Origin: a virus
IMG/VR virus record: IMGVR_UViG_3300034683_000333
Length of the DNA: 64,000 nucleotides
Direction: 5' to 3' (one strand)
Each line of letters starts with the position of its first letter. Position 1 is the stretch's first letter. A program made the translations under genes and the position numbers. The notes beneath the pieces were generated by a model, which saw only the letters and a program-made list of their open reading frames with translations, was not told the DNA's origin and did no database searches. This document shows, piece after piece, positions 1-64,000 of this stretch.

Positions 1-939
1 CCCAATGTAAACGACGAAGACCACATTCGTGATACAGTTCAAAAAGCCCGTTATCAACTTTGTGCACAACTTTAGCAAAACGTCACCATGTGGGTTAGAA
101 ATGGGTGTGAACTAATTGGTTTCCCAAGGGATATATTAAGACGTAGTGGTATTATGGAAGGTATTCTTGTAATGGCTATGGAAGAATCACTCGAACCAGT
201 ATCGTTTTACGAAAATGATTTGGCTATGGACACATTTTATGAAAACAAATCAGATGCAGACAAAGCTACGCAACGTGTATTTGTGCGTCAATTAAATATC
301 ATCAATGAACAATATAAGGTCTTCACAAGTCTTCCTAATATGAAAGACACGAGATTCGTGTATGAATTAAAAACGTTTGAAAATACAAAGCATCAAAACG
401 AAAGCTGGCAAATTACTGATATCGTGAAATACACACCAACAAGTCTCCCCGTAGATTTTAAAGCAAGTGATCCAGATCATATCTAGGATTTGAATCATAT
501 ATATTATAACGCTCTTGTTCCAACATACACAAGCAATGTTGGACGGGGTGGTGGCCTTATTGCAAAATTAGAGTACAGAGTCCAGGGAAAACAGGAAATC
601 AAATACATTACGTCCAAGAGTAGCGACTTTATTTCCGGTCTCAGTAATTCACAGCAGATTAGATTTGATGTTCAAACGTTTGAAACGGATAACCTCGACA
701 AACTCTTAGAAGATTTGTTTCCAACAAGTAGCAAAACAATTAAAATTTCACTAGGAGCCATTAAATCACAAGATGATCATAGCGCATAGGAATCACTTTA
801 CCTTTCCAATCCTTTCATAACAAACATCGTTGTAAATCATAACTATTTATCAGAAATTGATGAAGTTAATGTCGTTGCAACAATATATGATTAGCCAATT
901 AAAACACCATCATTACCAGACCCATTGATCAAATTCTGA
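1..939 (+). CDS. Hypothetical protein, 5'-partial, read through 4 TAGs
   Basis: Frame 1 is open from base 1 to TGA 937-939 except for TAG at 73, 484, 787 and 892. Joins track ORFs 88..486 and 490..789. Confidence 0.75.
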
Positions 940-953
940 CACAGAAATAAATG

Positions 954-983
954 TTGACAAGATGAAGCCTAACGTGATATTAT
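954..983 (+). promoter_or_regulatory. Sigma70-type promoter (extended -10)
   Basis: TTGACA 954-959 and TG-a-TATTAT 975-983. It abuts the right end of the outer IS. Confidence 0.55.
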
Positions 984-1130
984 TTGACACTCCCCATGAC
1001 TAAAGTCAGGGGATTCTTGGGTCGTTAACGCCCTCATCCATTTCTGGTTCGGACAACGCCCAAGTTAAGGGTGTGCCATCACCCCTCCCTAGGCAGGTCA
1101 TATAGACCCTAGGGCTGGTAGACTATCGCT
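984..1130 (-). ncRNA. Right end / omega-RNA scaffold of the outer IS
   Basis: Lies between the tnpB remnant stop (1131) and the TCAA end, and includes the terminal hairpin. Confidence 0.6.
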
Positions 1131-1243
1131 TTATGCTACACCATCTACCACAGGTGCTTTCATTATATTTATAGCACCTAATCTATCTCTATGTGTTATA
1201 TATCCACATGATTTGCATACATATTTTCTATCTCTCGCTTTGT
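1131..1243 (-). pseudogene. tnpB: C-terminal remnant of the outer tnpB
   Basis: Translates KARDRKYVCKSCGYITHRDRLGAINIMKAPVVDGVA*, the TnpB Zn-finger / RuvC-III tail. Confidence 0.8.
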
Positions 1244-1346
1244 GTGAACTACCCCCACCTATAGAGGTGGTGGCTTCGTGGTCAATACTCCCATCGGAGC
1301 AAGTTTACCCACGCTCAAAGGGCTGTTCCATCCCCGTATATGCCAT
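1244..1346 (-). ncRNA. Right end / omega-RNA scaffold of the inner IS
   Basis: Lies downstream of the tnpB stop and contains the CCACCACCTCTATAGGTGGGG hairpin. A near-identical copy is at 15240. Confidence 0.7.
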
Positions 1347-2417
1347 TTACATGGCTAATTTTAGTAAGTTCTTTGCTGCATTTACATCTCTATCGTGTTT
1401 AACATCACAATTAGGACACTTCCATTCTCGTAATGCTAAATTCTTTACTTCTATATTTTTATATCCACATTCACTACATATTTGACTTGATGCATAGTTT
1501 TGTGAGGCTATTATTATTTCTCTCCCATACCATTTTGCCTTATATTCTAATATTCTTCTAAATTCTGCCCATGATACTTCACTTATTGATTTTGATAGAT
1601 GTTTGTTTTGTTGCATATTCTTTACTCTCAAATCCTCTAAAACTATAACTTGGTTTTCGTTTATAATTTTAGAGGACAATTTATGAAGAAAATCTTTTCT
1701 TTGATTAGTTATTTTTTCATGTAATTTAGCAAGTTTTTGTCTATTTTTCTCATAATTTTTACTACACTTTTGTTTCCTTGATAAATCTCTTTGAAGTTTC
1801 TTTATTCTTTTTTCAGTTCTTCTTAGCCATTTAGGATTTTCTACTTTTGTTCCATCTGAAAATACTGCAAACTCTTTTAATCCTAAGTCTATACCTATTT
1901 TCTTGTCTACCTTAGGTAAAAATTGAATTTCTTCTTCTACAAGTATTGAAACATAGTATTTACCTGTTGGCGTTTTAGATATAGTTACAGATTTTATAAT
2001 TCCTAAAAACTGTCTATGTTGCTTAATCTTTATCATTGTTTTCAATTTTGGTATTTTCAAATAACTATTTTCTATTTTGACGGTTCCATTTTGATTATTT
2101 GTTGTATAAGATTGATAGCCCTTCTTTTTCTTGAATTTAGGAAAACCTATCTTTTTATCTCTAAAAAAGTTTTTATATGCTTTTTCTAAATTTATTTGTG
2201 CATTAGCAAGAGCAAGACTATCTACTTCTCTTAGAAATGGATATTCTTTTTTATATTGTGCAGGAGTTGTTTTAAGGATTTTCCCTGTTTGTTTATAATG
2301 GTCTATCTTATCATTAAGCATTTTATTATATATAAACCTTACACAACCGAATGTTTTAGCAAAAAATTCCTTTTGTTCTTTTGTTGGGTATATCCTGTAT
2401 TTATAGGCTTTTAGCAA
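1347..2417 (-). CDS. tnpB: TnpB RNA-guided endonuclease (IS605 OrfB)
   Basis: MLKAYKYRIYP N-terminus, RuvC motifs GIDLG / VLEDL / DRDVNAA, and Zn finger CSEC..CPNC. Confidence 0.95.
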   Translation of the reverse strand: MLKAYKYRIYPTKEQKEFFAKTFGCVRFIYNKMLNDKIDHYKQTGKILKTTPAQYKKEYPFLREVDSLALANAQINLEKAYKNFFRDKKIGFPKFKKKKGYQSYTTNNQNGTVKIENSYLKIPKLKTMIKIKQHRQFLGIIKSVTISKTPTGKYYVSILVEEEIQFLPKVDKKIGIDLGLKEFAVFSDGTKVENPKWLRRTEKRIKKLQRDLSRKQKCSKNYEKNRQKLAKLHEKITNQRKDFLHKLSSKIINENQVIVLEDLRVKNMQQNKHLSKSISEVSWAEFRRILEYKAKWYGREIIIASQNYASSQICSECGYKNIEVKNLALREWKCPNCDVKHDRDVNAAKNLLKLAM

Positions 2418-2419
2418 AG

Positions 2420-2899
2420 TTACACCTTCTTCCCTTGTGTTTCTATATATTTCTTAATTACTTCAATTGGTGCGCCACCTGTTGTAAGTAAGCAATAACT
2501 TCTTGACCAAAAATATTCCTTCCAAAGTTGTTGTTTGATTTCAGGGAACTCTTTTTTTACAAGTCTACTGCTGGCACTTTTATAAGCATTTATAAATTTA
2601 GATAGTTCGCTATTAGGATGTGCTTTGAATAATATATGAATATGGTCTTTACCGTGATTCCATTCTTGCAAGGTGATATTATAATTACCTTGTATTTTTT
2701 CAAATATTTCTTTTAGTCTGTTTGATATATTATCGTCAATTACTTTTCTTCTATATTTTGTTACTAAAACAAGATGATAATATAACAAGAATACTGAATG
2801 ATTATTATTGTCTAAATTTATTGGCTTATCAATCCTCCCGTCTCTAATACTGATTGTATTATTGAAGGAAGGTTTTGTCAAGCAACATTCATCACCCAC
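2420..2899 (-). CDS. tnpA: IS200-type Y1 transposase (true start uncertain, about 2820)
   Basis: HSVFLLYYHLV, HUH motif DHIH, FWSRSY and IKKYIETQ. Confidence 0.92.
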   Translation of the reverse strand: MGDECCLTKPSFNNTISIRDGRIDKPINLDNNNHSVFLLYYHLVLVTKYRRKVIDDNISNRLKEIFEKIQGNYNITLQEWNHGKDHIHILFKAHPNSELSKFINAYKSASSRLVKKEFPEIKQQLWKEYFWSRSYCLLTTGGAPIEVIKKYIETQGKKV

Positions 2900-2928
2900 T
2901 TATAGAAGTGGGCGACTTCTGTTGCTGG

Positions 2929-2956
2929 TTAGGTTAAATTTAACTGTTAATTTCAT
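2929..2956 (-). pseudogene. tnpB: N-terminal stub of the outer tnpB
   Basis: ATG AAA TTA ACA GTT AAA TTT AAC CTA A follows tnpA and is cut by the inner IS. Confidence 0.7.
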
Positions 2957-2970
2957 AATTCACCACCTTT

Positions 2971-3369
2971 CTATACATTCTTTTGATTTTCTATATATTT
3001 TTGTATTGCTTTTTCGCTTACGTATCCAACAGTACAGCAAAAATAACTTCGTGTCCAAAGTGAAGGGATTCTACTTCTTAATTCAGGATATTTTTCTCTT
3101 AAAATTCTACTGCTTGTTCCTTTAAAATATCGTACTAAACTGTGCAAATGTTGTCGTGGATCGAAACTTATAAACATATGAACATGGTCTGGTATTATTT
3201 CTAATGCTTTTATTTCAACATCTTTCTCTTTAGCTATATCATAAAATATTTGCCTTAAATCTTTCTCTATATCTCCAACTAACACCTTACGTCTGTATTT
3301 AGGACAAAATACTATATGATATTGATTAAGATATACTATACCTTCTTTATGTGTGTATTTATCTTCCAT
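2971..3369 (-). CDS. tnpA: IS200-type Y1 transposase of the outer element
   Basis: YHIVFCPKYRR, PDHVHMF, LWTRSYF and IQKYIENQ. Ends on TAG (standard-code stop). Confidence 0.95.
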   Translation of the reverse strand: MEDKYTHKEGIVYLNQYHIVFCPKYRRKVLVGDIEKDLRQIFYDIAKEKDVEIKALEIIPDHVHMFISFDPRQHLHSLVRYFKGTSSRILREKYPELRSRIPSLWTRSYFCCTVGYVSEKAIQKYIENQKNV

Positions 3370-3781: not shown

Positions 3782-6700
3782 TTAGAAAAGTCTTTTTACG
3801 ATAACATCCAGATATTTTTCGGGTATGACACTTGGAATGTGAACCCGAATCGAAAGCTTATCCATAACATTCTGGACTCCAATATTTGACCCACATAGCT
3901 CCATGGTAAGAAGGTTTCCAAACTCAGTATCCCAACGCCACAAGTTATTTAGTGGAAGAAGATTAACGTAGAATGTTCCAGTCGATGTGGTATCCACACT
4001 CACCACAATGTCTTCGTAGGGAACTGCAAATGACCAACCCACCTCAATGGAATTTGATTTTCTATAAACATAGACCGAAGCGCTCTGAAAGAGACTTGAT
4101 GACTCCATTTGCCAAATCTTATCCGTGTAGGAAACGACGTGAACGGGATTTTGAGCACTAGGACTTCTTCCGGTTGTTGGCAAGTTCCATCTGGCCCACC
4201 AATCCCGAACAATTCCTTGGATCGTACTCCGAAGCTCCGGGTAGATCTCCATAAGACCCACAAACTCTTTGAGCGTTACGGGCATGGAATATGGATCAGA
4301 CAATCCATTAAGAAGGGCTTCGGCCCACGGAACCGCCTTGTCTCCAGCACGAAGCGTCCATGCAAATGTGAGATAACTTCGGAATCGGATGTTGTATGTC
4401 GTATCTGGAACCATGACAAGATGGTAAAAGGCATCACCCGTTTCAACATACTTTTTCATGTAATCATCAACCAGTATGTTGTAATTAAGTTTAATCTCAC
4501 CCAATGCCGTTTCGGCCTATGATTGATTAACATAAACATTATTTGATTCGAGTATATCTTTGACACGATTAGCAAGATTCTTATCAGAAAACTCATTTTT
4601 TGATAACTAAACGTTTTCGGGTAAGAAGATAAGATTTGATTTTACATCCTAAGTATATACTGGTAGAGAAAGCGTGATTGGAACAATGTATGTCGAATAA
4701 AATAACTCCAAAACGGAACTAGGAAGAAACCTTTCAAACACTGCACGGAACTTTTTACGAAGCTCAAAGAAGGCCCCCTAAAACGCCTTGCCATCATCAT
4801 AAGCTGAATCGGTAGTATTTCCAAGAACAGCATTCATTGATTTTTGCATTGTTTGGACGTGTTGATTATTTTGATCAAACACAGCCAAAAACCAAAGAGC
4901 CTTAAAGATGTTTACCCCGGTTGAAATCACACTAGACAAAACACTAGGATCGGAAAGTTGTAGGCGTGAACTTACAGTTACCATTGATGAAGTTGTTTTT
5001 TGAACACCATCTTCATCAACATATTTGATATTTACAATAATAGTCTGCGGTTCCGTGCTATACACAAGATATTTATGAAGTAACTTAACACCAGTTCCAT
5101 AGACCTCATGCACATACATTTCCGTTGATTGAAGAGCTTTGATATCGTAAAGCGATGTTAGTTCAACCAATGTATCGTTATATACATAATCAACTTCTGT
5201 AATTCTAAATTTAGAATAAAGTCGTGAATTTTGCGTAGGTTCAATGAGAATGGTAAACACATCTTCGGTAACTTCGGAGGCTTCACATGTTAGATCCGTC
5301 GAATAAACACGAGAAACAGTGAATGTATCAAATGAAAATGGTGCTATAATGATGTTACTAAGAAATGATTTAAGATTTTCTTTAACGCTTTTATTATTTT
5401 CTGCACTATAAATAAGTGTATCGATAATTTCATTCGTCGTAAGAGACATCGCTGTTTGATCAATCATCACATCCACTTTAACATTGTCCATAAACCAGTT
5501 AACAATTGAAGATATTGATCCACCAAGAAATCCATTTTCCTCCATCCAATCAAAGAATGTAGTGTCGAACGACTCTTTCTTTTTCGTTGTAATATACTTT
5601 TTCCGCTAACTTAAACCATCTACATAATTTCTATATTTCCATGAACTAGGTAATTTATCTTTATAATACTTCACAAGAAAAGATTCCATAGCAATTGGCT
5701 GAATAGAAGAACCATTGAAAATATTTGACGAATTAAACTTTACCCATCCAGTATGATTTCCAGATCGGGAGATTTTTCCGATTGTATATTCGACAAGTCC
5801 ATTGAACGACATCTTCTCAATAGCATCATTTTCTAATTTTGTCTTAACGTTTTCGGGGTCGTTGCGATCCAATGAAAAGTAATGAATCATATAATCTAGC
5901 GTAGCCGTATCATCCCAAGAATCATCCGTTAACAATAAATTTTGGAAACGATTCTTCCCCAATATCATTGCATTGGATTTTAACGTAGGTTCAAGAGAAA
6001 CCTCAATCTCATTTCCAATGTGTGACTGGTAATCATTCTAGAAATCAATAAAAAAGTTTTTCATGCCATTGATAATAGTATCCAATACAGTCGATTTTGT
6101 TAAATTCACAACATCTTTTGTGTGTCCAATGTTCGGTGACATAAATTTATGTATAATAATATCATCTCCATCTTGATTACTGTCATAAACAAAATATTCA
6201 ACCAAATCCATCCCAATGGACATCGGAACTTTAAATTGAACTGGAACACCACGAATCGTCGTTGTTTTATTGTAGGTTAGTTCTTTGATATCAATTCCGG
6301 TTCTAAATAGATTGCGATCCGTTAATGTATAAATATACGTCTCATCTGACGCAAAAGTAACATCTTGTTTTATTTCTTCAACTTTCTTATATAATTGCTG
6401 AACAACGGGCTCATGCGATTTCTTTCTAAGCTTATACCTGGTTGTAATAAACGGCACTTCCATCTATTCTTGGAAATAATTAACATCTGTTGTGTCAATA
6501 CCCTCAGTTGTAATTGATAGGTGGATAATACCATTTAATGATTGTATAATATCATCAGTGTAGTTCATACCCTGCTTAAAACGATAACGATAATAAAGTG
6601 TAAACCATTTATTAAGATTTCCGGTTTCATTTAGTTGCAGGGTGGGTTCAAGGGACAATGAATAAGAAGTTGTGTCCCACTCCAGATATTCAAAAATTGG

Positions 6701-8278
6701 TCCCGTGGCATCCAGTTCAACGACAATTGGAACGTTTTGTAGATAAATCAATTCATATTTTACTGGAATTGACAGAACCATCCAACGATCTGTTGCATCC
6801 GGGCTTAAATAGGCACTGAAATCATCATAACTTGTAAAATCATCACTCCACGGAACAAGAAGATCCGGGTTCCAACCATTTTTCACCCCCGTGTATTCCG
6901 GTGTAAAATTGATTTTTGCGATATAGTCTTTAATGATATCAAAGGGAGCATAAACAAACCGTTTGATGTAGTCTTTATTGGCTTCACTAAATGTATCCGA
7001 CATGAACAACCGGATACCATTTTCTCCGTAGGATAGTAGATTTTTATTTACATCGAATCGTAAATTAAATGTATCGAGATAAATTTTATTTACAAATTGG
7101 CTGTATGGGACCTTCGAACTCCAAAGAAGGTTGTTTGAATACTCCAGAACATCTATTTTAATCGGAATATCCGTGGTGCTGTCAACAAACAACGCCATGG
7201 AATCTTCTGTTTCCACAAACGTAAAATCCACATCCCAATCTGGAATGATGTTTTTAACTTGAAACCAAATATATGTATTCCACCAAAGCGTGCCGTCCTG
7301 GTAAAGATTGAATTCCCATTGATAGCGATTGTTCCGAATAAGCAAAAAACGAATGAAATTTACATTCAGAATATCAAGATGCCCATTCTCCATTCGTTGC
7401 ACACTCGACACCACCTCGTACAAATCGCTTGGTGTGTTGAGTGCCCCTGTAAAATCCACATCCCAATGTACACGATTCAGGTAGAAATCTTGCGCCTCGG
7501 ACCAGAAAAGGTTGAATAAAACATCCGTATCCGCACCCGTTTTCAACTCGTAGACTTCACTTGGTGTATGGAAATACTATTTCTTTTCTTCAGCATGAAC
7601 AACATCCCATGAATCGCCGACGGTACGCTTTATGTTTTCGATAAAATGATTTCTGACTATTTCTTTATAGTCAATCAATTCAATTTCATTCCAAGACAAA
7701 TAATTAAGCTTTAACTTATTATTCAATTTAACGACATAATTGTTATAAATATAATCCTTTAATCCCGTCATAAGTGCATAATCGTTAAACATATCCATTT
7801 CAATAAAGTGAACATCATACTGAATAACCAAATCGTTTGCAAGCCATGGAATGGTTGGTTTCACAAACAACGGAAACGAAAACATATTACCTTCACTTAA
7901 TTCCGGCTAACGGACAACACGAAGAACAAAGTGAAGATCGATTTCCTTCATGAGAAGTGTGTGATCGTAGATGATTTCATCTCGTGTAAACATTACAACA
8001 CTTTGGTCATAACGATTCGTTCCATCCGACTAAAAGATATCCAGGACCTCGAAAAACGTCCGGTCTTTCAAAAACCAACTGTCATCAAATACAAGCTCCA
8101 TGGCGGTAACGTCGGAATACGATTCGAAAACCGTTTTTTGAAGCGTTGAATCGAGTGATAAATAATTTTTTATGGTCTGAATGTCCGTTGTAATATCAAA
8201 TGTTGTATCAGACCAACTTGTTTCATCACCACGATTAAAGTAAATTTTGTGCCTTAGATTGTTTAGGTAAGTAGCCAT
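3782..8278 (-). CDS. 1498-aa hypothetical, probably virion structural, protein with 10 in-frame TAGs
   Basis: Single frame from ATG 8278 to TAA 3782, interrupted only by TAG at 8030, 7907, 7577, 6464, 6038, 5606, 4778, 4649, 4607 and 4517. Joins 7 track ORFs. Confidence 0.88.
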
Positions 8279-8287
8279 ATATCAGCC

Positions 8288-9199
8288 TCATTTTACGATT
8301 CTATTTTTAAAGTTTATGTAATCAATATTATAGAAAATCTTCCTAAAAGAAGCCTTATTGTTTGTGATTTTTCTTAAATACACTTCGCCCGTTGCAACAT
8401 CTTTCATAACCAAGTAAAAATCTACAAACTTTGAAAATTGATCCATACTCGAAAAATTTTGCGAAAGAATTTGTTGTTCGAGCGCATCGGCATTTCTCAA
8501 AGGAGATGACGTAACGGTGAATCGAACCTCAAAAAAGGGAATGTACTTTGTTTGAGAACGAATATCAGGATCATCAATTATAAATGCAAAATGGGTGGAA
8601 TCCTTAAACGAACGGGACTATTCAAAAAAGGAAGAATCAACTGGTGTTTCAAAGTCGTCGTGTTCAAAGAAATCGTCAAAATTGTATTTAGAAAGTATGA
8701 ATGGCGGAATTTCGTTATAGGCCGTTTCGTCAAAGAAAAATGACGAGTTGTAGAAACGTTTTTCTGTTACAAGCTTATCTCCAAAGTAAAAATAGTATAT
8801 AACTTCAATGGGAAATCTAAAAACAGATTTGATTTCATCTCCTGCATCCAACAACTGGGATTTGATCACCGGAACATGCATAATTTTTGAAAACGACGTA
8901 TTAAACTTTGGATAAAATGCCAACTATCGAAACCAACTATCGAGATCTTCTTCATAATTTAGAATATTTAGAACACTTGTCTCGTCATAGTTCAATAACA
9001 GGTCTTCGTTATCAATGGGGATTAAGTTAATCTTCATCGAAAGCTTTTCGCTTGTATCGATTAAAGTGGACAACGAGGCAATATCTATAAGCGCATTGTT
9101 ATATGAAAATTTTGAATCAGATTTTTTACTTAAAGGAACAATTACACCAAGACGTTCATTATAATTATATATGATTTCTCGTAATTTTGCATTGTCCAT
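8288..9199 (-). CDS. 303-aa hypothetical protein (2 TAGs)
   Basis: AAGGAG RBS. TAG at 8924 and 8618 joins three track ORFs. Ends on TGA. Confidence 0.82.
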
Positions 9200-9321
9200 G
9201 CGACACTCCTTAAACGGTGGAAGTTCATATATTATATCTTTGAAATTAGTTGGACAATGAAAAGAAAAAGGCCAATCACAAAACGTGATCGGCCTTGTAA
9301 AATGTGTTGATTAGATGGTTT

Positions 9322-9549
9322 TTATTTAGACTTTGGCTTTTTGGCCTTCTTAACATTTTTCTTCGACTTGGTTTTCTGTTTCGCTTCAATGATCTCTTCC
9401 TCACCGTCATGATAAATAGCCGTTTCACGAAGATTCCCAGGTGCCACGATATAGACACTTCCAGGATCTTCCTTTAGTGCATTCACCAAATCTTCTCGTG
9501 TAAAGAAAATGTCATCCCTTGTCGTTTTTGTTTTTTCTTTCTTATCCAT
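9322..9549 (-). CDS. Small protein with a Lys-rich tail
   Basis: GGAGG RBS, starts MDKKEK, ends TAA. Confidence 0.7.
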   Translation of the reverse strand: MDKKEKTKTTRDDIFFTREDLVNALKEDPGSVYIVAPGNLRETAIYHDGEEEIIEAKQKTKSKKNVKKAKKPKSK

Positions 9550-9958
9550 TGTTTTCCTCCTATTGACTTTTCCAAAAATACACACAAAATGTCGAAGGCT
9601 TTCGATTATATTTCTTCTCGTATTTGGAAGCCTCAGACTCGTATTTATTATAATCTATTAGTTTCAAAACTTCAAGTAAAAAATAATCAATAACTTCATC
9701 CCAATTTACATCATCTAATGTATACCGTTGTTTTTCCTTATCAAAACGCCCACCAAAAAATTCAAGATATGGATTAACAACCTTTTGTGTAAGTGGATCT
9801 GGCAATCCAATTTCCTTATATAACTCAACAATCTTATTGATTACCTAATCGGGCCATAACTTTGATTTAGCTACACGACCCAGCGTAACAAGATCTGGTC
9901 GATATATTACAAATGGTTTGAACTTTGGTGGTAAGGTTTTGCTATTTTTAACAAACAT
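9542..9958 (-). CDS. Hypothetical protein (2 TAGs)
   Basis: ATG 9958 overlaps the upstream TAA (TAATG). TAG at 9845 and 9560. Ends TAA 9542. Confidence 0.72.
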
Positions 9959-10734
9959 TATGGTTTCCTCATTTGAACAGAATTGATATAGTTATATCTA
10001 CCAGTTAAAATGTCTTTCATCTTTTTATTTGTTTGTTCATCGAATCCAACTTGATCCACAACATTCAAAATTTCATCCAGAGAAACTGTATTAAAATGTT
10101 CCAAGCTCTGTTCTACTTCATCGGGACTCAATCGGGTATAAACCTTGGCGGCATTACCAATTTGAAAAAATGTATCCAATTCAGGAACGCTATCACCGTT
10201 AAACAGGTGATCCCCCTTGGGTGCTCCCTGTGCCCTAAAGAGGAGAGCACCACCGGCATCGAGTCGAAAAGGCTGGCCCGTTTTTGAATTGATAAAACAA
10301 TTGTCAAAAACTAACCCGAAAACATCCCAATTGGCAAGAAAGGCATCCACCGCATAACCCATTCCAGCCTTCTTGAAATCCTCGTCGGTCTTAAGGGGTT
10401 TGAGATCGTCCACCTATTTGGAAGCAATTCCGAATTCACCATTTCGTTCGATGAATTTAACTTCCGGCGTCTCCAAGCCCCACAATTTATAGAGTTGCAC
10501 GGCCAACATTTCATTGCGGGCATGTTTTTCCGTCTCGGGAAATTTCACGTACCACTTTTCTCCCTTTTCATCCCGAAAAACACCCCCACGGTTTGACCCG
10601 AGTTGACCACCTTCCCTCGTCCACTTGTCAATGGTGGTTGGTTTTTTATCCACCACCTAGTAACCCTGAAGGTATGGTTTCCCCTTTTTGCTTACTTTAG
10701 GAACCTTCTTTAATCGCCCGTGTCCACGTTTCAT
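9958..10734 (-). CDS. Atypical kinase-fold (HipA / PI3-4K-like) phage domain protein (2 TAGs)
   Basis: GSNRGG loop, WYVKF..RNE, DAFLANWD, DN and RLDAGGALLFRAQG. TAG at 10657 (QGY*V) and 10414 (ASK*VD). Confidence 0.65.
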
Positions 10735-16875: not shown

Positions 16876-16904
16876 TTGACGATCATTTTGCTATTTGTTA
16901 TTGT
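16876..16904 (+). promoter_or_regulatory. Sigma70-type promoter
   Basis: TTGACG-17-TATTGT. Confidence 0.55.
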
Positions 16905-16957
16905 GCAATCAAACGATGGGGTTGGTAAACGAAGAATCCAAACAAAGGAGAATCATC

Positions 16958-18316: not shown

Positions 18317-18326
18317 AAAAAAAAAA

Positions 18327-18353: not shown

Positions 18354-18359
18354 ATATCA

Positions 18360-46552: not shown

Positions 46553-46569
46553 TAGGCGGTGGTAAAAAC

Positions 46570-47154: not shown

Positions 47155-47262
47155 GGTTACACCTCCCACATCTTATTTTGGCTTCTGAAGTTTAAAACTG
47201 ACCACCACTCTACGGGAATAACAATAAATCATCTTGATATAGCGATCAAGCATTTTTTTTCT

Positions 47263-54430: not shown

Positions 54431-55618
54431 TTAAACCATCTTGATGATTTTGCCAAATGGTGGCTTAAACCAATTATTTCTTATCGTGAGCATCCAAAGT
54501 ACCGGGAACCTCGGAACCGATTGGGGAAACGTATTGCAATACCCATCGGTATAATAGAGACACACCTTGGGTAAAACACGTTCTCTTTGGAGAAGATTGA
54601 ATCCAGGAACAAAACTCGTTCCACCACCGCCACGATACGTGAGTTCAATTTTATCGTGAGGCTTCACGACGAAATAATCATGAACGGCGAAATCCACCGT
54701 AATAAAATGAATGGTAGCTTCAAATTTCGCCCGAATCTCTTCCAAATCACGGTTGATTTGAGAAATCATATCCCGTGAAATACTACCACTCGTGTCCACA
54801 ATCACGGCAACATCCAGCGCTTCCTTTTGACGAGCCTTCCCAGGAAGGACAATGCCATGAGCACGAAGACGTTTTTTGGTCTTCTTCCACGACGTGGTTT
54901 TAGAAAGGCACGTCGTTAAAAACTGATTCAAGATCTTCCTATAATCCACACTCGGATTGAAAACCTTGTCGAATTCTCGCAAAAAATGACCGGCTCTTGT
55001 TCCAGCCAACGTTCCACCAAGGCTTTGTCGAAGGCTTTCAACGGTAGAACGCCATTCAATTTCCTGTTCGTTTTCATTTTTTTCACCGACAGAATTCCGA
55101 AGTTCTTCTGGAACGGGAAGCGTCCCGGGGGAGTAGAGATCATCGGGAGCACCGCCACCACCCGAACCCGATTCGGCATTGGAACCGGAAGAACCATTTT
55201 GCTCGGCCTTATCTTCTTCCTGCAACAACAATTCGTAAACTTCTTCGGCGCTCATTCCATGAAAACGACTGTCGAACAATGCACCCTTAACAAGCGAATG
55301 ATTGGAAACCAAAATGCCATTCACAACATAATCTGCCGCCGTGTTCCATGTTTCTTTTTCACGGCTACCTATTCTCAGATGATGCAACATCGCACAATGC
55401 ATCACCTCATGGGCAAACACAAACACTTGTTCTGGAACGCTTAATTCATCAAAAAAATCAGGATTGTAGGCCAAAAATTGACCATCCGTTGCCGCCGTCT
55501 TTATTTCACTAGTAGGGAAAATAACAAGCTTATTGAGAAGATTAGCAAAGAAAGGATCTACGAGAACGAATCTTGCCTTAATGTTTCTCAATCGTTCTTG
55601 TTCTTTCTTGTTGATCAT
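54431..55618 (-). CDS. DUF2201-type metallopeptidase-VWA protein
   Basis: AATDG, FAHEVMH, IVDTSGS and GGGGTSF. Confidence 0.88.
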   Translation of the reverse strand: MINKKEQERLRNIKARFVLVDPFFANLLNKLVIFPTSEIKTAATDGQFLAYNPDFFDELSVPEQVFVFAHEVMHCAMLHHLRIGSREKETWNTAADYVVNGILVSNHSLVKGALFDSRFHGMSAEEVYELLLQEEDKAEQNGSSGSNAESGSGGGGAPDDLYSPGTLPVPEELRNSVGEKNENEQEIEWRSTVESLRQSLGGTLAGTRAGHFLREFDKVFNPSVDYRKILNQFLTTCLSKTTSWKKTKKRLRAHGIVLPGKARQKEALDVAVIVDTSGSISRDMISQINRDLEEIRAKFEATIHFITVDFAVHDYFVVKPHDKIELTYRGGGGTSFVPGFNLLQRERVLPKVCLYYTDGYCNTFPQSVPRFPVLWMLTIRNNWFKPPFGKIIKMV

Positions 55619-55647
55619 TTCACCCTCCGTTGCTTGTTTGTAATAAA

Positions 55648-55676
55648 TATATATCACAAAACAAGCAACAAGTCAA
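55648..55676 (-). promoter_or_regulatory. Sigma70-type promoter
   Basis: TTGACT-17-TATATA with a TG extension. Confidence 0.55.
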
Positions 55677-55714
55677 TAAAAAAGGGGATGGTTGTGAACC
55701 ATCCCCGAAGGTTC

Positions 55715-56596
55715 TTAATTCATGTACTTCTTAATTTTTTCGAGAATCTTCGCCGCATCTTCGGCGACCTTCTTCTTGGTGTCGGGATTTTCTTTGATTT
55801 CATCTACATTCACACCACCAAAGACATCCCGAATTTCCGTGGCAAGACGATTAAGCTCGGGATCATCCGACACGTTAAGGGATTCCACAATTTCAACAAT
55901 ATCGTTTGCCGCCTCAAACATGCTCTTGCGAAACCTTTCGGCCTCGGGATCGGTCAAACGATCCTTGATCTTTTTCACCACATTCATCATGCGGATCACA
56001 AGATCCTTGCTGGCCGCCTCAAAACGCTTCTGAAGCAACTGTTCGAGGCGATTCCGCATCCTCTCCACTTCCTCACCACCAAGACTTACTCGAAAATCGG
56101 TGGTGGGAATGGGAAACACATCGATGGAAATTCCGAAATAGGATCGAATTTCGCTCTCGGAAGGATAGTCATTGGGGTTAAAAAGGTGACCCAATTCAAC
56201 CCGGCTCTGCTCCACAAGATCGTTATACTCATCAATAAACTTGTCCACCGCCTTTTCCCACTCGGAACGGGCCTTCTCGATTTTTTCCATGTATCGGAAA
56301 TAATTCTTCGTCGGAAGAAGACGTTCCCCACGATCCCCCCAAGGAAGTGTGTTTTTCCGATGCATATTACGAAGCCTTTGTTCAAGCTTTTTAAGCTCGT
56401 TCAGCCTCTCCTTGGGAACCAGAAACTTCACATAGTTTCCACGGGTCTCCTTCACACCATAGGTCGAGGAAACGGCGTCATTTCCACGAACATCAGTGGT
56501 TTTTCCCACCCAACAGGAAATTGTGAGATCAACCACCACGGCCTTTTCACAAATGTCATTCTTATTATCTTCAATCTTCATGGCGATAGCTTCCAT
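55715..56596 (-). CDS. Conserved phage protein usually found with MoxR / VWA genes
   Basis: LTISCWVG, TLPWGDRGERLLP, LGHLFNPNDYP and DFRV. Confidence 0.8.
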   Translation of the reverse strand: MEAIAMKIEDNKNDICEKAVVVDLTISCWVGKTTDVRGNDAVSSTYGVKETRGNYVKFLVPKERLNELKKLEQRLRNMHRKNTLPWGDRGERLLPTKNYFRYMEKIEKARSEWEKAVDKFIDEYNDLVEQSRVELGHLFNPNDYPSESEIRSYFGISIDVFPIPTTDFRVSLGGEEVERMRNRLEQLLQKRFEAASKDLVIRMMNVVKKIKDRLTDPEAERFRKSMFEAANDIVEIVESLNVSDDPELNRLATEIRDVFGGVNVDEIKENPDTKKKVAEDAAKILEKIKKYMN

Positions 56597-56650
56597 TTCT
56601 TCTCCTCCTATGTTTAATTGTTTAATTCACCAACCCCTTATTGTGATTCT

Positions 56651-56679
56651 TTTATACCAGAATCATTGTTTAATGTCAA
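56651..56679 (-). promoter_or_regulatory. Sigma70-type promoter
   Basis: TTGACA-17-TATAAA. Confidence 0.75.
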
Positions 56680-56730
56680 GTGGAAAATCAATCATTAATC
56701 TTTTGATTTTCCACTTGATCAATCATTGTT

Positions 56731-57777
56731 TTAATTAAGATACTTTGCAAACTTTACAGCCCACAGCGCCATTTCACTCGTTTCAAGAAGGGCTGGCTTT
56801 ACCTCTGCAATCATCCTAATGAATGCGATTTCATATTCATCACCGAAACGTTCAACATACTTCTTGATCTTTCCGATATTCTCACCATTCACAACATTGA
56901 TCAAAGAATTGCAAACAGCATGACGAATATCATGTTCTTCTGGAACTGGAGTTCCTTCAGGATCATTCAAAATATCATCAATATCAGGAAACTTTTCAAA
57001 CATCTTAATAAAATTCAAAAATTCAATACCAACACCGTCACCAACCGTTCCAATAATCAACTCGTCTCGAACAGAACCGGTAAAGGAATAAACAATATCA
57101 CTTACATATTCCCATGTTCTGGGCGTTGCGAACGTAACCGCATCCGAATCGGGATTAAACTGGAAAAGATGGTGCCGTTGCTTGGAAACATAGGCAATCA
57201 CATAGGGATGAATGTTGTTGTTTTCGGCCCACTTGATCCACGATTCCACGTCAACGTCAACGTTGATGTGGATGAACCGATTGGCGAGTGGAGCACTCAA
57301 ATCGTAGGTATACGCACGATCTTCGCTTCTGTTTCCAGCCGCAACCACAACCCAACCATCGGGAAGTCGATAATTATCAATTTTGCGATCCAATGCAAGC
57401 TGAAGCGCAACCTTTTGGATATCGGGTTCGGCGGCGTTCAGCTCATCGAGAAAGAGAATACCACGACCATCGTGGGGAAGAATCGAAGGCTGAAACCACA
57501 CCGTCTTTACAGACGAAACGGGAATGTATTCATCCATGGAATTGAGATTGCGAAGGCGATCCTCTTCCACGACAGCAGGAAACGGAATGCCACGCATGTC
57601 CACCGTATCGTAGTAGATAAGGCGGAAATCAATGAATCCGACACCAAGTTCATCGGCGACCTGCTTGATAAGCGTGCTCTTTCCGATACCAGGAGGCCCC
57701 CACATATACAAAGGACGACGAAATCCGTTTTCAAGCGATTTCTTAATGACCACCTTGATGTCCGAAATCTTCATCAC
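56731..57777 (-). CDS. MoxR / dynein-related AAA+ ATPase
   Basis: GPPGIGKS, LFLDELN, AAGNR and LANRF. Confidence 0.9.
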   Translation of the reverse strand: MMKISDIKVVIKKSLENGFRRPLYMWGPPGIGKSTLIKQVADELGVGFIDFRLIYYDTVDMRGIPFPAVVEEDRLRNLNSMDEYIPVSSVKTVWFQPSILPHDGRGILFLDELNAAEPDIQKVALQLALDRKIDNYRLPDGWVVVAAGNRSEDRAYTYDLSAPLANRFIHINVDVDVESWIKWAENNNIHPYVIAYVSKQRHHLFQFNPDSDAVTFATPRTWEYVSDIVYSFTGSVRDELIIGTVGDGVGIEFLNFIKMFEKFPDIDDILNDPEGTPVPEEHDIRHAVCNSLINVVNGENIGKIKKYVERFGDEYEIAFIRMIAEVKPALLETSEMALWAVKFAKYLN

Positions 57778-57961: not shown

Positions 57962-59470
57962 ATGAAAATAAAAAAGCGAAAGAACAACCCAAAACTAATA
58001 AAAACACCACAATCGGTCATCCGCATAAATGATGGTAAAACTGAAGTTTATCGTCAACATTTTTACAAGTTAGCAAATAAACAAAAAAACATCAATCTTA
58101 ATCGAATAGGATTAAACAAAGACGAACGTTTGATAGTTGACACACTACTTGAACATTCCGATAAGGTATATCTTGTTGGTGGTGCTGTAAGAGATTTATT
58201 TCTCGGCAAAAAACCAAAGGATTTTGATTTAGCAACTGATTTAAAACCAGAAGAAATCATAAAAATTTTTGGTGAAGACAAAGCAAAATTAACGGGAAAT
58301 GTATTTCCAACAGTCCGAGTAAAAATAAATGATTCTGAGATTGAAGTAAGTACATTCAGAAAGGAAATTGGAGAACCAACCGGAGATAGAAAGCAATTTA
58401 CCGTAAAATATGCCACAACAATCCAAGAAGACCTGGATAGAAGAGATCTTTCCATCAACGCCATTGCCATCAATTGCAAAACGGGGGAAATCGTCGATCC
58501 ACACAATGGAATTTCAGATATTGAAAACAAAGTTATTCGATTTGTAGGCGATCCACGTGATCGACTCCGGGAAGATCCTTTGCGGTTCTACCGGGCCATT
58601 CGATTTCGTCTTAAATTGGATGGAAAATATGCACCCGAAACGATTTCGGCTCTTAAAGACCCATCAGTGGTCCAAATGGTAAAGGAAAATGTATCTAAAG
58701 AACGAATCCGAGAAGAGATTTTAAAGTCCATGAGCGCCACACAACGGGCGTCTGGATTTTTCAGGGATTTACATGCGTTCGGTATGTTGGAATACCTGTT
58801 CCCACCACTAGCCAAGTCCGTAAAACACGACGGTGGTCCACACCACGGGGAAGATGTGTTCACCCATGCTATGTTGGTGGGAGACAATTTCACCCCACGA
58901 ATCCCCAACGATCCCAATGAATCTCTGGCAAAACTGGCCGCTTACCTACACGACATTGGGAAACCAAGCACATACGACCCCGAAAACCGCTCCTTCTATA
59001 ATCACGAAAAAATTGGAGTTTCTGTTGCAACTGAAATTCTAAAAAGCTTGAAATTCTCTACTAAAGAGATAGAATATGTATCGAAATTCATTCGCTACCA
59101 CATGAACAAACCGACCACCCCAAAGGGCGCTCGAAAACTGATTCAACAATTCGGTGAAGAAGATTTGCCCAATCTCATCGAGCTTTTTCACGCAGACACA
59201 ATCTCAAACTTGAACAAAACGCCGGAAGAGATTAAATTTAGTAAGGAAAAGATTGAAAATATACGGATTTTAATTGATGAGGTAAATTCAGAAAAAGATA
59301 AATTTTTGAAACCAATAATTACGGGCCACACACTCATAAACGAACTCAAACTTAAACCCGGAAAAATTTTCAAGGAAATTCTCGATTTTGCAAACGAATT
59401 GACCTTGGAAGATCCAAATAGAACCAAAGAGGAAATACTTAACCAAATTAAGAGGAAATTTGATTTATGA
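57962..59470 (+). CDS. cca: Class II CCA-adding tRNA nucleotidyltransferase with an HD domain
   Basis: VGGAVRD..DFD, DLDRRDLSINA, EDPLR, and H..HDIGK. Confidence 0.88.
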   Translation: MKIKKRKNNPKLIKTPQSVIRINDGKTEVYRQHFYKLANKQKNINLNRIGLNKDERLIVDTLLEHSDKVYLVGGAVRDLFLGKKPKDFDLATDLKPEEIIKIFGEDKAKLTGNVFPTVRVKINDSEIEVSTFRKEIGEPTGDRKQFTVKYATTIQEDLDRRDLSINAIAINCKTGEIVDPHNGISDIENKVIRFVGDPRDRLREDPLRFYRAIRFRLKLDGKYAPETISALKDPSVVQMVKENVSKERIREEILKSMSATQRASGFFRDLHAFGMLEYLFPPLAKSVKHDGGPHHGEDVFTHAMLVGDNFTPRIPNDPNESLAKLAAYLHDIGKPSTYDPENRSFYNHEKIGVSVATEILKSLKFSTKEIEYVSKFIRYHMNKPTTPKGARKLIQQFGEEDLPNLIELFHADTISNLNKTPEEIKFSKEKIENIRILIDEVNSEKDKFLKPIITGHTLINELKLKPGKIFKEILDFANELTLEDPNRTKEEILNQIKRKFDL

Positions 59471-60502: not shown

Positions 60503-61729
60503 ATGCGATTGATGGAGAGTTTCACCCCCACCGACTATTCCGTTTCGATGGTTGGCTTTCGTCCAACGTCCAATTTGCACCTTGGGCACTATCTTTCCAT
60601 TATCAAACCAATTTTAGAAAATCAGTTTAAAACAATAATTTTTTCGGCTGAACTACACACCCTTACTTCTTCACAACATCACCCCGGTCGTGCGTTGAAA
60701 GACGCACGAGAAACCACAATCCAATGTATCACGACAATTTCTCGCTATGTCAACCTGGACCCTGAACATGTTGTTTTTATCAGCCAATATGAGATGAAAG
60801 ACAAACACTATGAACTCCATAACATGATTATCAACGCTGGAACCACACCGGCAATTCTATTCAGAAACCCAATTTACGTCAGTGCACTTAAGAATGAATT
60901 CATTGATTACCTAAACGATAAGCAGACATTAAACGAAGAAGAGATAAATTGCATCGTGGATGTTTTCTTTTCTCATTCCGATATCCTGATTGGTGGGCTA
61001 ACGCCCTTGGGAACAAACTGTATCATCAACCAACTCGAAAAATGCAAAATTGATAAAAAGACAATCAATGAAATAATCCATCACGTAACCAAAATCTCTT
61101 ATGGAAATCTGGGACTAGCCCATTATCCTCTTCTCATGGCGGCTGATGTGATCCTCTACGAACCCGACACACTCATTGTCGGTGACGACCAGAAACCCAA
61201 CGTCCAAATAATCCACGAAATCATCGATATGTTGACACATCGATGGAACATTGGCATCAAGCGATTTCGACCCGTTTATTCAGGCGACCGACCCCTTTGT
61301 GGATTCGACGGACGCAAAATGTCGAGTTCTCTAAATAATTATCTTCTACTCGATTGGTTCACGACCGCAAAAGATCTAGTTTACGAATATTACAATAGAT
61401 TTATCACTTATCCGAGACGCCGAACTGAACCTGGAATCTTCCACGAGTGTCCATTAAGCACACACTGGATCGCCTTTGGAAACAAAGACCAGATTGAAGA
61501 AATTCAATCAGCTTGCGAAACAGCAAAAATTGGATGCCTAGATTGTAAACGTAAAATTGCGGAACACATGTTGGTCACATTGAAACCACGATTTAGGGCC
61601 ATACCAAACGTCAAAAGTCTCATCGAAGAAGGAAGTTGGTGGGCCAAAAATCGAATTAAAAATTCGAGTATATTTTCAGATTGGAATTATTCAGAAACCT
61701 TCGATTCGCTAGATATTCTTACCTACTGA
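60503..61729 (+). CDS. trpS: Divergent bacterial-type tryptophanyl-tRNA synthetase
   Basis: GFRPTSNLHLGH (HIGH), AELH, YPLLMAAD, VGDDQ, GRKMSSS (KMSKS) and CETAKIGCLDCK. About 65-aa insertion. No TAG. Confidence 0.9.
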   Translation: MRLMESFTPTDYSVSMVGFRPTSNLHLGHYLSIIKPILENQFKTIIFSAELHTLTSSQHHPGRALKDARETTIQCITTISRYVNLDPEHVVFISQYEMKDKHYELHNMIINAGTTPAILFRNPIYVSALKNEFIDYLNDKQTLNEEEINCIVDVFFSHSDILIGGLTPLGTNCIINQLEKCKIDKKTINEIIHHVTKISYGNLGLAHYPLLMAADVILYEPDTLIVGDDQKPNVQIIHEIIDMLTHRWNIGIKRFRPVYSGDRPLCGFDGRKMSSSLNNYLLLDWFTTAKDLVYEYYNRFITYPRRRTEPGIFHECPLSTHWIAFGNKDQIEEIQSACETAKIGCLDCKRKIAEHMLVTLKPRFRAIPNVKSLIEEGSWWAKNRIKNSSIFSDWNYSETFDSLDILTY

Positions 61730-62211: not shown

Positions 62212-62229
62212 TCACCTAAAAAATTTTAT

Positions 62230-62619
62230 TTACCAACCTACACGGCGGTTTAATTTTTCGTCTTCGTTTACATATATATTTTGCAGACGTTCCATTTCCA
62301 CATGAACTACCGTATAGGATCGACTCCTAAGCTTTCCCAATCTAGGATTTTCATCCATTGAAAAAGCTCTTGCTTTGAAATTGGTATAATTCATAGAAGA
62401 AATAACACCAATCATATAGATAAGAAAAGTTTTACGATCTACAAACACACGATAACGATAATCATAATCACGATTTTCGATAATGTTTGATTTTTCAACA
62501 CCGGCACATTCACAAAACCTTTCAATATCCTCACGAACTCGTGCACGCACCAACACTTCATCATCATTATTGTGATTCACAACCACCGAAAAGAAACCAT
62601 CCTCATTGAAAATCAACAT
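62230..62619 (-). CDS. Conserved hypothetical phage protein
   Basis: GFFSVV..LVRAR..DYRYR. Confidence 0.72.
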   Translation of the reverse strand: MLIFNEDGFFSVVVNHNNDDEVLVRARVREDIERFCECAGVEKSNIIENRDYDYRYRVFVDRKTFLIYMIGVISSMNYTNFKARAFSMDENPRLGKLRSRSYTVVHVEMERLQNIYVNEDEKLNRRVGW

Positions 62620-62620
62620 G

Positions 62621-63277
62621 CTAGCTCTCCTTTCTTGTTTGGGTTATTGTTGTATAACACACATTACCATTACTACTATTTTTCAAAGATGCGTAGAACA
62701 TCATTCTTCCATACACAGACAACACTTTTTGCGGATATCTATTGGCATTACCACTGTAGTGCCTTAATGTTTTGATAACATCATAATCATACATTTTAAG
62801 GAGTTTGGTTAGTATATAATTACCAACACGGATGTTTTTCTCAATATCCAATAAATCTTTACGATTACGAATTCCAAATTGCTTTAATTCATCTTTCCAA
62901 ACATCATAATAAATCTGGCATAAACCGAAAGCTCCAACACTACTATGAGCATTTGGATTAAAATGACTCTCAACATACATAATTGATATTAGAAGAATTG
63001 GATAATCACTAACTTTATACGCTACATCAACAACTTTGTCAATATATTTTTCACGTTCATGCCCTATATATTGTATAATATGATCTTTTACTAATTTTTT
63101 ATTTACACCGGTATTTTGAGAAGGTAGTAAAAAATGCGGCGGAAAATAATCAATAATAATTCCCTCATTGTTGGTTTCCTCTTCTTCTATGTTGGGTTTG
63201 TTTACTATATATTTATCAGATACAAAAAAACCAATCATCAAACCGACACAAAATGCTACGTATGAAATGTACTTCAT
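62621..63277 (-). CDS. SLT-domain lytic transglycosylase with an N-terminal TM / signal segment
   Basis: IMYVESHFNPNAHSSVGAFGLCQI, NIRVG and YSG. Ends on TAG with a TGA 6 codons later. Confidence 0.85.
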   Translation of the reverse strand: MKYISYVAFCVGLMIGFFVSDKYIVNKPNIEEEETNNEGIIIDYFPPHFLLPSQNTGVNKKLVKDHIIQYIGHEREKYIDKVVDVAYKVSDYPILLISIMYVESHFNPNAHSSVGAFGLCQIYYDVWKDELKQFGIRNRKDLLDIEKNIRVGNYILTKLLKMYDYDVIKTLRHYSGNANRYPQKVLSVYGRMMFYASLKNSSNGNVCYTTITQTRKES

Positions 63278-63723
63278 GTAACCTCCTCAAATTCGAGTAT
63301 TCGATACCGCACACCACATTCATCAAACATCAATCGACTGATTTCCCAACTCGACTTCCATTTTTCATTTGACCAATCGGCGCAAAACACGATTTCTTTA
63401 ATGCCACTTTGAATAATCGCCTTTGCACATTCATTACATGGTGGTAACGGCCAGATATACATCGTGCAATCATCCAACGGCGTTCCACACCTTGCGGCAT
63501 TACATATGGCGTTTACCTCGGCATGAACAACAAGATTATATTTGGTTTGTCGATCATTATAGCGCTCAGGCAGATCATTCACACCACGAGCAAATCCATT
63601 CCACCCGGTCGATCGAATCTCCCGATCCGGCCCAACAATAATAGATCCAACTTTACACGACGGATCTTTCGATTTCATCGATACTGCTTTTGCAACTTCG
63701 AGAAAGTATGTATCCCAATCCAT
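63274..63723 (-). CDS. dCMP deaminase
   Basis: SKDPSCKVG, GWNG, HAEVNAI and PCNEC. Confidence 0.93.
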   Translation of the reverse strand: MDWDTYFLEVAKAVSMKSKDPSCKVGSIIVGPDREIRSTGWNGFARGVNDLPERYNDRQTKYNLVVHAEVNAICNAARCGTPLDDCTMYIWPLPPCNECAKAIIQSGIKEIVFCADWSNEKWKSSWEISRLMFDECGVRYRILEFEEVT

Positions 63724-63726
63724 ACA

Positions 63727-64000
63727 TTAAAACCTCCAAATAACTTTTTTAACTGCATTTACACAATACTTTGATTTGTTACTATACCAAATATCAACAT
63801 ATATACTACAATATTTAACCAACGCCTCACTATGTAACTTATAATCTATCTTAGATTTGTCCCACCACTTATGAAACTGCTTAGAGTTATACTGTGCCAA
63901 TTTACCAGCATGTCGATAGTTAAATTTCTCTCCATCCCACCAAACATCAAAATACTCTGAGCAATACTTAGGTAAATATCCAGAATCTTTTTTCCAATTG
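63727..64000 (-). CDS. Hypothetical protein, 5'-partial
   Basis: Open frame to TAA 63727 with repeated KYCS.Y.D.W motifs. Confidence 0.6.
   Translation of the reverse strand, partial: NWKKDSGYLPKYCSEYFDVWWDGEKFNYRHAGKLAQYNSKQFHKWWDKSKIDYKLHSEALVKYCSIYVDIWYSNKSKYCVNAVKKVIWRF

Follow-up and report, generated by a model that had tools for sequence, protein, structure and literature searches.

Known stop codon reassignments and the present phage

Among phages that read a stop codon as sense, reassignments of TAG to Gln and of TGA to Trp or Gly are well described in the literature. In phages whose code differs from that of the host, Borges et al. (10.1101/2021.08.26.457843) reported only TAG-to-Gln and TGA-to-Trp changes, and phage tryptophanyl-tRNA synthetase (TrpRS) was found only beside TGA suppressors. 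Seki et al. (PMC12636597) analyzed 29 phage tRNAs with the anticodon CUA, or tRNA(CUA), by mass spectrometry, 28 of which inserted Gln and one Ala, and described phage pairs of glutaminyl-tRNA synthetase (GlnRS) and tRNA(CUA), of tyrosyl-tRNA synthetase (TyrRS) and tRNA(CUA), and of TrpRS and tRNA(UCA), but no TrpRS:tRNA(CUA) pair. Here, we have analyzed a stretch of 64,000 nucleotides (the window) from the IMG/VR virus record IMGVR_UViG_3300034683_000333, which belongs to a phage in which TAG is a sense codon. We put the probability at roughly 0.85 that TAG encodes Trp beside TGG, with TAA and TGA as the sole stop codons, and that this assignment is implemented by a tRNA(CUA) and a TrpRS-like enzyme, both of the phage. 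The genes central to this reading are the following, with lengths in amino acids (aa).

30089-30165, minus strand: tRNA with anticodon CUA (ARAGORN; Rfam RF00005, 72.8 bits)
57962-59470, plus strand: CCA-adding tRNA nucleotidyltransferase, TAG-free (PF01743, HD and PF13735 domains; phrog_2244, E 3e-72)
60503-61729, plus strand: TrpRS-like class I synthetase, 408 aa, TAG-free (PF00579)

The assignment of TAG to Trp is unreported for any virus or prokaryote in the searchable literature, in which the plastid case of holoparasitic plants was the sole result of phrase searches for Trp at TAG or UAG. The plastid code of Balanophoraceae makes the same assignment, but in a plant organelle with extreme AT bias and no such dedicated synthetase, whereas here the setting is a virus in a standard-code host. 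That plastid code is NCBI table 32.

Several other systems resemble the present one in part. The crAss-like, Lak and other TAG-to-Gln phages (Borges et al.; Peters et al., PMC9523058) likewise possess many in-frame TAGs and a phage tRNA(CUA), and their early and replication genes are likewise compatible with the standard code, the recoded codons being concentrated in large late-type genes; the present phage differs from them in the residue, which here is probably Trp, and in its dedicated synthetase. Phage pairs of TrpRS and suppressor tRNA that read TGA also place Trp at a stop codon, their module being likewise written in the standard code, but these pairs use the anticodon UCA with G73 or A73 (PMC12636597), whereas the tRNA described here has CUA and U73. 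In the Jade-type module, the suppressor tRNA, synthetase and release factor are clustered upstream of lysis genes. This arrangement is not found here: the tRNA lies 30 kb from the synthetase and there is no RF-1 gene in the 126.5-kb record, although an SLT-domain gene is located 0.9 kb away on the other strand. Engineered TrpRS:tRNA-Trp(CUA) pairs (Hughes and Ellington, PMC2965240) have the same tRNA-Trp body, CUA anticodon, altered acceptor identity and non-host TrpRS; those pairs are laboratory-designed, whereas the pair of this phage appears to be natural and to act genome-wide.

TAG as a sense codon

The window comes from a single IMG/VR virus record, of which it is the minus strand of bases 35228-99227. 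This record is 126,535 bp long, has a GC content of 36.6% and is rated 64% complete. Identical protein fragments also occur on a 195,227-bp contig, which points to a full genome of about 195 kb. Open reading frames (ORFs) were counted by a rough longest-first tiling. Under code 11 the whole record yields 194 ORFs with a coding density of 0.86 and a mean length of 187 aa, and with TAG as sense it yields 133 ORFs with a density of 0.925 and a mean of 293 aa, the longest having 2511 aa (27 TAGs), 1598 aa (20 TAGs), 1537 aa and 1498 aa. No consolidation of ORFs was obtained on the whole record when TGA or TAA was read as sense (196 and 190 ORFs, respectively). The density comparison that had been suggested in a preliminary description of the window, made from the letters alone, thus gives a gain in density and ORF length under TAG-sense only.

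A total of 177 in-frame TAGs are present in the record, and no TAA or TGA occurs inside ORFs of up to 2511 aa, although the other frames of two TAG-rich ORFs of the window (3782-8278, minus strand, and 49782-54395, plus strand) contain 56-130 TAA and TGA codons. These counts and the TAG-only consolidation led to the rejection of sequencing error and of a reassigned TGA or TAA. The TAG-bearing ORFs referred to below are as follows.

3782-8278, minus strand: 1498-aa ORF with 10 TAGs, no family match, SD-like (Shine-Dalgarno-like) GAGG upstream
8288-10734, minus strand: three ORFs (303, 138 and 258 aa) with two TAGs each, separated by short gaps or a TAATG overlap
18540-19745, minus strand: 401-aa ORF with five TAGs (phrog_21015)
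20790-21692, minus strand: 300-aa ORF with two TAGs, its start overlapping the upstream stop (ATGA)
22664-24202, minus strand: 512-aa ORF with four TAGs
28237-30027, minus strand: 596-aa ORF with four TAGs, directly downstream of the CUA tRNA
44963-45571, minus strand: RuvC-like resolvase (PF02075), TAG at codon 19 (45515-45517), following the catalytic motif IGIDPS
49782-54395, plus strand: 1537-aa ORF with 10 TAGs, homologues P0001 and P0002

The preliminary description had proposed that TAG is sense in this phage and had counted 10 TAGs in each of the ORFs at 3782-8278 and 49782-54395; exactly 10 are found in each, with no internal TAA or TGA. Its figure of more than 50 TAGs in about 22 genes was of the right order, as the rough caller yields 31 ORFs with about 70 in-frame TAGs between them, some of these ORFs being doubtful because they are short, lie on the opposite strand or have the TAG near an end. 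Readthrough was also said to restore starts preceded by ribosome-binding sites, overlaps of neighboring genes and a catalytic motif. This is borne out by an SD-like motif before 57 of 100 starts, compared with 9% of random positions, by a TAATG overlap at 9958 and ATGA overlaps at 41065, 19745, 21692 and 63277, and by the N-terminal IGIDPS of RuvC, which is restored when TAG at codon 19 is read through. Full-length homologues span the TAG sites: P0001 covers 98% of the 1537-aa ORF, and P0005-7 align end to end with a 769-aa ORF, straight through its TAG positions. All the features of a stop-codon-recoded phage that were tested were therefore found, namely a gain specific to TAG, homologues that continue through TAGs and a suppressor tRNA, the last of which had also been recognized in the preliminary description.

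Identity of the amino acid

For the assignment of a residue, TAG was translated as X and homologues were collected for three TAG-rich proteins: the 1537-aa ORF (P0001 and P0002), the 769-aa ORF with 12 TAGs (P0003-P0014) and the 2511-aa ORF (P0016), for which no homologue of near its own length was found. This gave 26 alignable TAG sites, at each of which the closest homologue was considered. The best homologue has W at eight sites, Y at five and Q at two, and 11 other residues occur once each. In a comparison of log likelihoods (lnL), for which the substitution tables were derived from these alignments, Trp ranked best, followed by Tyr at -1.8, with Gln below -42. Among the sites matched by W or Y, the ratio of W to Y is 8:5 for TAG, 30:15 for phage TGG codons and 12:203 for phage Tyr codons; the ratio at TAG is improbable for a Tyr codon (P = 9e-8) and fits a Trp codon (P ~0.5), and for relatives at 55-59% identity only, the Tyr-codon model gives P = 1e-4. 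In P0001 and P0002, three TAGs of the 1537-aa ORF (codons 97, 299 and 880) are matched by W, that at codon 705 by Y and that at codon 1337 by F. TAG thus aligns with conserved Trp and behaves like TGG.

Motif sites give a similar picture. A short AdoMet decarboxylase (AdoMetDC) gene outside the window reads SVHT-TAG-PE where three of three solved homologues have HTWPE, and both canonical Trp positions of a Kelch-like blade are occupied by TAG. Profile-based (Codetta-style) inference was possible only for AdoMetDC, RuvC, the Kelch repeats and a deaminase, the TAG of which lies in a variable loop and is uninformative on the residue. Paralogues within the genome provide just one aligned TAG site. 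TGG is not depleted (1.5%).

Public protein sets contain traces of the same codon in relatives. Logan protein P0025 is the phage's own 2511-aa ORF (L003:2915-10450) with Q at all 27 TAGs, which indicates that Logan proteins are table-15 translations and that Q in Logan relatives can hide a TAG; the full-length Logan relatives P0001 and P0005-7 probably carry hidden TAGs as Q. In Logan relatives, Q stands opposite Trp encoded by phage TGG at 4 of 65 positions and opposite phage Tyr at 1 of 313 (Fisher P = 0.0035). When P0001 is compared with P0002, Q is found opposite W at 2 of 14 positions and opposite Y at 0 of 69, and one near-identical segment reads ELQVQM in P0001 and ELFVWM in P0002. JGI fragments of closer relatives that were translated with code 11 stop exactly at phage TAGs (codons 109, 120 and 472 of the 769-aa ORF), and one such fragment stops at a phage TGG (codon 2446 of the 2511-aa ORF).

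Code 15, in which TAG is Gln, was rejected on the alignments, which lack the pairing of TAG with Gln that defines this code (Q at 2 of 26 sites, with the lnL given above). The preliminary description had cited Gln as the usual case in amber-recoded phages without naming a residue for this one; TAG as sense stands, whereas Gln is rejected here and Trp is favored, so that tables 15 and 4 would both mistranslate this phage.

The CUA tRNA

The CUA tRNA forms a canonical cloverleaf with G18G19, a T-loop, a variable loop of 5 nt, C1-G72, U73 and an encoded CCA. In a comparison with the best-scoring annotated matches among 1112 phage records, its positions 4-70 were 83.6% identical to a mycobacteriophage tRNA-Trp(CCA) (E 4e-10). 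The D arm differs only by an additional U in its loop and the T arm is near-identical; the sole difference in the anticodon loop is C35U, whereas the acceptor stem is replaced, with C1-G72 for A1-U72 and discriminator U for G. To judge from this likeness, the CUA tRNA would be a derivative of tRNA-Trp, and charging with Trp is predicted. The identity elements of bacterial TrpRS are G73 and the CCA anticodon, and the bacterial Trp acceptor pattern is A1-U72. Since these elements are altered, the host enzyme should handle the CUA tRNA poorly, which would explain a re-tuned synthetase of the phage's own. In E. coli, amber suppressors made from tRNA-Trp are mischarged with Gln. Mischarging of amber suppressors derived from tRNA-Trp is also discussed in Borges et al. 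(10.1101/2021.08.26.457843).

Upstream of the CUA tRNA (region 30089-31493) is a minus-strand TnpB gene without TAG (413 aa, OrfB_IS605 and TNB domains), the end of which is 87 nt from the tRNA, and a hairpin with a 9-bp stem lies in this interval. An IS605-type element may be the site of the suppressor tRNA, or may have carried it along. Apart from this tRNA, the 126.5-kb record contains just one more, a tRNA-Ile with anticodon TAT (C1:14907-14983, outside the window).

The TrpRS-like synthetase and the CCA-adding enzyme

The synthetase is the sole PF00579 gene in the 126.5-kb record, in which no gene of the GlnRS/GluRS family, no second synthetase of the Trp/Tyr type and no PylS was detected. 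NCBIfam TrpRS models match it with 107 and 98 bits and TyrRS models with 28 bits, all below the curated cut-offs. Its best PDB match is the TrpRS of Thermotoga maritima (2g36), with the HLGH, KMSSS, MAAD and VGDDQ segments aligned and an insertion of about 70 aa in the phage protein between residues 123 and 193. MAAD and VGDDQ are taken by us to be pocket segments, their roles being assigned by the Bacillus stearothermophilus and Methanocaldococcus jannaschii enzymes. Four cysteines align with those of the T. maritima enzyme, in which they presumably bind a 4Fe-4S cluster near the anticodon-binding domain. Met16 is aligned with residue 32 of M. jannaschii TyrRS, which we take to be the Tyr that contacts the substrate hydroxyl. 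An ESM Atlas model of the protein is structurally closest to TrpRS clusters (TM 0.70/0.85), and the nearest neighbors of the protein in sequence features are viral clusters from the Trp/Tyr synthetase family. Judging from sequence and modeled structure, the protein encoded at 60503-61729 appears to be a highly divergent relative of TrpRS, closer to TrpRS than to TyrRS, and it is proposed as the charging enzyme for the CUA tRNA. The CCA-adding enzyme is encoded two small ORFs upstream, in the same plus-strand row.

Distribution of TAG among genes

The use of TAG is uneven along the record. The TAG share, defined as TAG/(TAG+TGG) in gene cores only and given in record coordinates, is 3% at 11.6-35.5 kb (7% without a family of Trp-rich paralogues), 15-28% across the window and 31% at 88-121 kb, where giant ORFs without annotation are located. 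This heterogeneity has a chi-square P of 5e-10, and of 9e-4 without the Trp-rich family. TAG-free genes include those for the synthetase, the CCA-adding enzyme, both pieces of a family B DNA polymerase (PolB), UvsX, both SNF2 helicases, TnpB and a nuclease. In functional terms, the split between TAG-free and TAG-rich genes fits the published model (Borges et al.) in which early genes in the standard code would install the change that late genes need.

The Trp-rich family comprises four tandem paralogues (234-294 aa, 38-47% identical) at 63727-64000 of the window (partial) and C1:31729-35501 of the record. They contain about 9% Trp, with a motif like HFDxWWDPxxFNW recurring every ~35 aa. TAG is absent from these four genes, in which 100 TGG codons were counted in total, and Pfam gives no match.

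Near gene ends, TAG occurs in the last six codons six times against 2.1 expected (P = 0.02), whereas TGG occurs nine times against 9.1. This suggests that in a few genes TAG has remained the end, backed up by a second stop, and TAGs within six codons of TAA or TGA may be former or early-phase stops. ORFs whose sole or last TAG lies 0-20 codons before the stop are found at 32184-32822, which ends in a TAG-TGA tandem, and at 62603-63277, 46507-47169 and 16895-18376. Late TAGs also include codon 219 of 224 in the SLT gene and codon 200 of 220 in the MucR gene. A further case belongs to a mobile element.

1347-3369, minus strand: IS200/IS605 cluster with a TnpB-like ORF (1347-2417) and Y1 transposases (2420-2899 and 2953-3369)

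In the IS200 TnpA at 2953-3369, TAG is codon 133 of 138, just past the end of the Pfam match; it is probably the original stop, now read through by five codons, and this transposase is probably a recent arrival.

Proposed mechanism and alternative explanations

In the order of events that we propose, host ribosomes using the standard code would early in infection translate the TAG-free genes, including those for the TrpRS-like synthetase and the CCA-adding enzyme, while tRNA(CUA) is transcribed. This tRNA, as a derivative of tRNA-Trp with C35U, C1-G72 and U73, would be charged with Trp by the phage synthetase and not by the host enzyme, and Trp-tRNA(CUA) would then outcompete host release factor 1 (RF1) at TAG, so that the large TAG-rich ORFs, presumably virion and other late genes, could be made. 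It seems to us quite likely that a natural orthogonal pair of the phage, consisting of a divergent and possibly Fe-S-containing TrpRS and a CUA tRNA derived from tRNA-Trp, installs TAG as Trp in a standard-code host and that, with the decoding and replication genes being free of TAG, the code change also gates the late genes.

A number of observations speak against Trp or against this pair. The closest relatives show Tyr at 5 of 11 TAG sites while they have W at 10 of 10 TGG codons, the full likelihood parts W from Y by 1.8 nats only, and Tyr obtains the higher score in a pool of all low-identity homologues. We attribute this last tendency to poorly aligned sites and a small Trp sample, and part of the pairing with Tyr to the fact that TAG is one mutation away from both TGG and TAT/TAC. 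The composition of the ortholog P0001 (W 21, Y 94), set against that of the phage ORF (W 18, Y 84, TAG 10), is not decisive and leans slightly towards Tyr, and Trp at TAG makes the late proteins unusually Trp-rich (2.4-3.7%). The synthetase scores of 107 and 98 bits compare with cut-offs of 572 and 177, respectively; it is thus not an ordinary housekeeping TrpRS, and at such a distance Trp can be named only as its putative substrate. A single-sequence AlphaFold model of it is unusable (pLDDT 48). Neither a release-factor gene (RF-1 domain) nor an anti-RF1 function was found in the 126.5-kb record, which is 64% complete.

The reading of TAG as Tyr, with the CUA tRNA charged by a phage synthetase of changed specificity or by a host enzyme, would account for Y at 5 of the 26 sites, or at nearly half of those in the closest relatives, as well as for the pooled alignments and the ortholog composition. 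C1-G72 is the pair of archaeal and eukaryotic tRNA-Tyr, which also counts in its favor. It is nevertheless quite unlikely, since W:Y at TAG is incompatible with that at Tyr codons, the hidden TAGs of relatives pair with phage Trp and not with phage Tyr, the synthetase is much closer to TrpRS than to TyrRS models in bits and has Met where TyrRS has the hydroxyl-binding Tyr, and the tRNA has the body of a tRNA-Trp and a short variable loop unlike that of bacterial tRNA-Tyr. Phage TyrRS:tRNA(CUA) pairs are on record (PMC12636597), which is a precedent for Tyr and a point against Trp. Gln at TAG (table 15), through charging by host GlnRS and with the TrpRS-like gene as an unrelated auxiliary gene, is the common case, given that 28 of the 29 phage tRNA(CUA) cited above inserted Gln in E. 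coli extract (PMC12636597), and public pipelines already translate this phage with Gln. We regard it as highly improbable for the present phage, as Gln ranks more than 42 lnL units below Trp, its two matches among 26 sites come from table-15 Logan translations and are probably hidden TAGs, TAG occupies aromatic positions (HTWPE, the Kelch Trp positions and W in relatives), and no GlnRS gene was found in the record. The anticodon loop of the CUA tRNA, with C32/A38, is a further point against Gln. E. coli tRNA-Gln has U32/U38 in this loop.

Decoding could also be mixed or conditional: according to the stage of infection, TAG would be read in part as Trp and in part as a stop or some other residue, such that some genes end at TAG early and are extended late. 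The excess of TAG in the last six codons, without an equivalent for TGG, together with the TnpA, SLT and MucR cases, the TAG-TGA tandem and the lack of a release-factor gene in the record, argues for this possibility, but the numbers are small and the gene ends come from a crude caller. On its own we find it very unlikely, and it complements the reading of TAG as Trp and does not replace it. The notion that there is no recoding at all, with TAGs arising from sequencing or assembly errors, pseudogenes or pyrrolysine sites, is of practically negligible probability: 177 TAGs with no TAA or TGA in ORFs of up to 2511 aa argue against it, as do the same TAG-bearing fragments on several independent contigs. 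ARAGORN does label the CUA tRNA as 'Pyl'. A pyrrolysine system was rejected in view of the missing PylS and of a canonical tRNA (G18G19, T-loop and 5-nt variable loop) unlike tRNA-Pyl.

Implications for annotation and code expansion

Annotation tools offer table 15 for TAG, and phage gene callers offer only table 15 or 4. Approximately 1% of the residues in the largest proteins of this phage would therefore be wrong in public databases, many of them at conserved aromatic positions, and Gln wrongly placed at TAGs hurts homology searches and structure prediction. TAG as Trp would widen the set of viral stop codon reassignments and argues against the view that phages can exploit only the natural tendency of host enzymes to mischarge, namely that of GlnRS at TAG and of TrpRS at TGA, as this phage seems to bring its own enzyme for an assignment that would meet with resistance from the host machinery. 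With its unusual acceptor identity (C1-G72 and U73), a natural TrpRS:tRNA(CUA) pair would also be a ready candidate orthogonal pair for genetic code expansion, beside the TGA-reading AP1 pair.

Gene content and relatives

The recognized genes are of phage type and include family B DNA polymerase, UvsX/RecA, a PD-(D/E)XK nuclease, RuvC and SNF2 helicases, as well as dCMP deaminases, an SLT lytic transglycosylase, a Ros/MucR regulator, and TnpB and IS200 transposases. Searches of phage, IMG/VR, JGI-metagenome and GTDB collections revealed no close DNA relative; neither megablast of 24 kb nor tblastn of the 1498-aa ORF gave a match in the phage collection, and single-protein and alignment scans of viral, metagenome and genome contigs confirmed no related locus. 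Pfam and PHROGs yielded almost no family match for the TAG-rich ORFs. Other features of the window are listed below.

33422-44256, minus strand: replication block with few TAGs
35740-37902 and 33422-34381, minus strand: PolB in two pieces, each TAG-free
38989-40227, minus strand: PD-(D/E)XK nuclease, TAG-free
42955-44256, minus strand: UvsX/RecA, TAG-free
54431-55657, minus strand: DUF2201 metallopeptidase/VWA-like protein, TAG-free
56731-57777, minus strand: AAA ATPase, TAG-free

The DUF2201 protein and the AAA ATPase form a minus-strand row (54431-57777) with a 293-aa ORF of no recognized family, all three being TAG-free, and this row adjoins that of the CCA-adding enzyme and the synthetase. 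Within the replication block, the PolB piece at 35740-37902 contains the exonuclease and Pfam positions 61-202, and its residues 408-449 resemble ORF6N; the piece at 33422-34381 covers Pfam positions 228-347. Between them lie two ORFs of no recognized family (34773-35699 and 34375-34758) with one TAG each, and the presence of PolB in two ORFs may reflect a split gene or an inserted mobile element.

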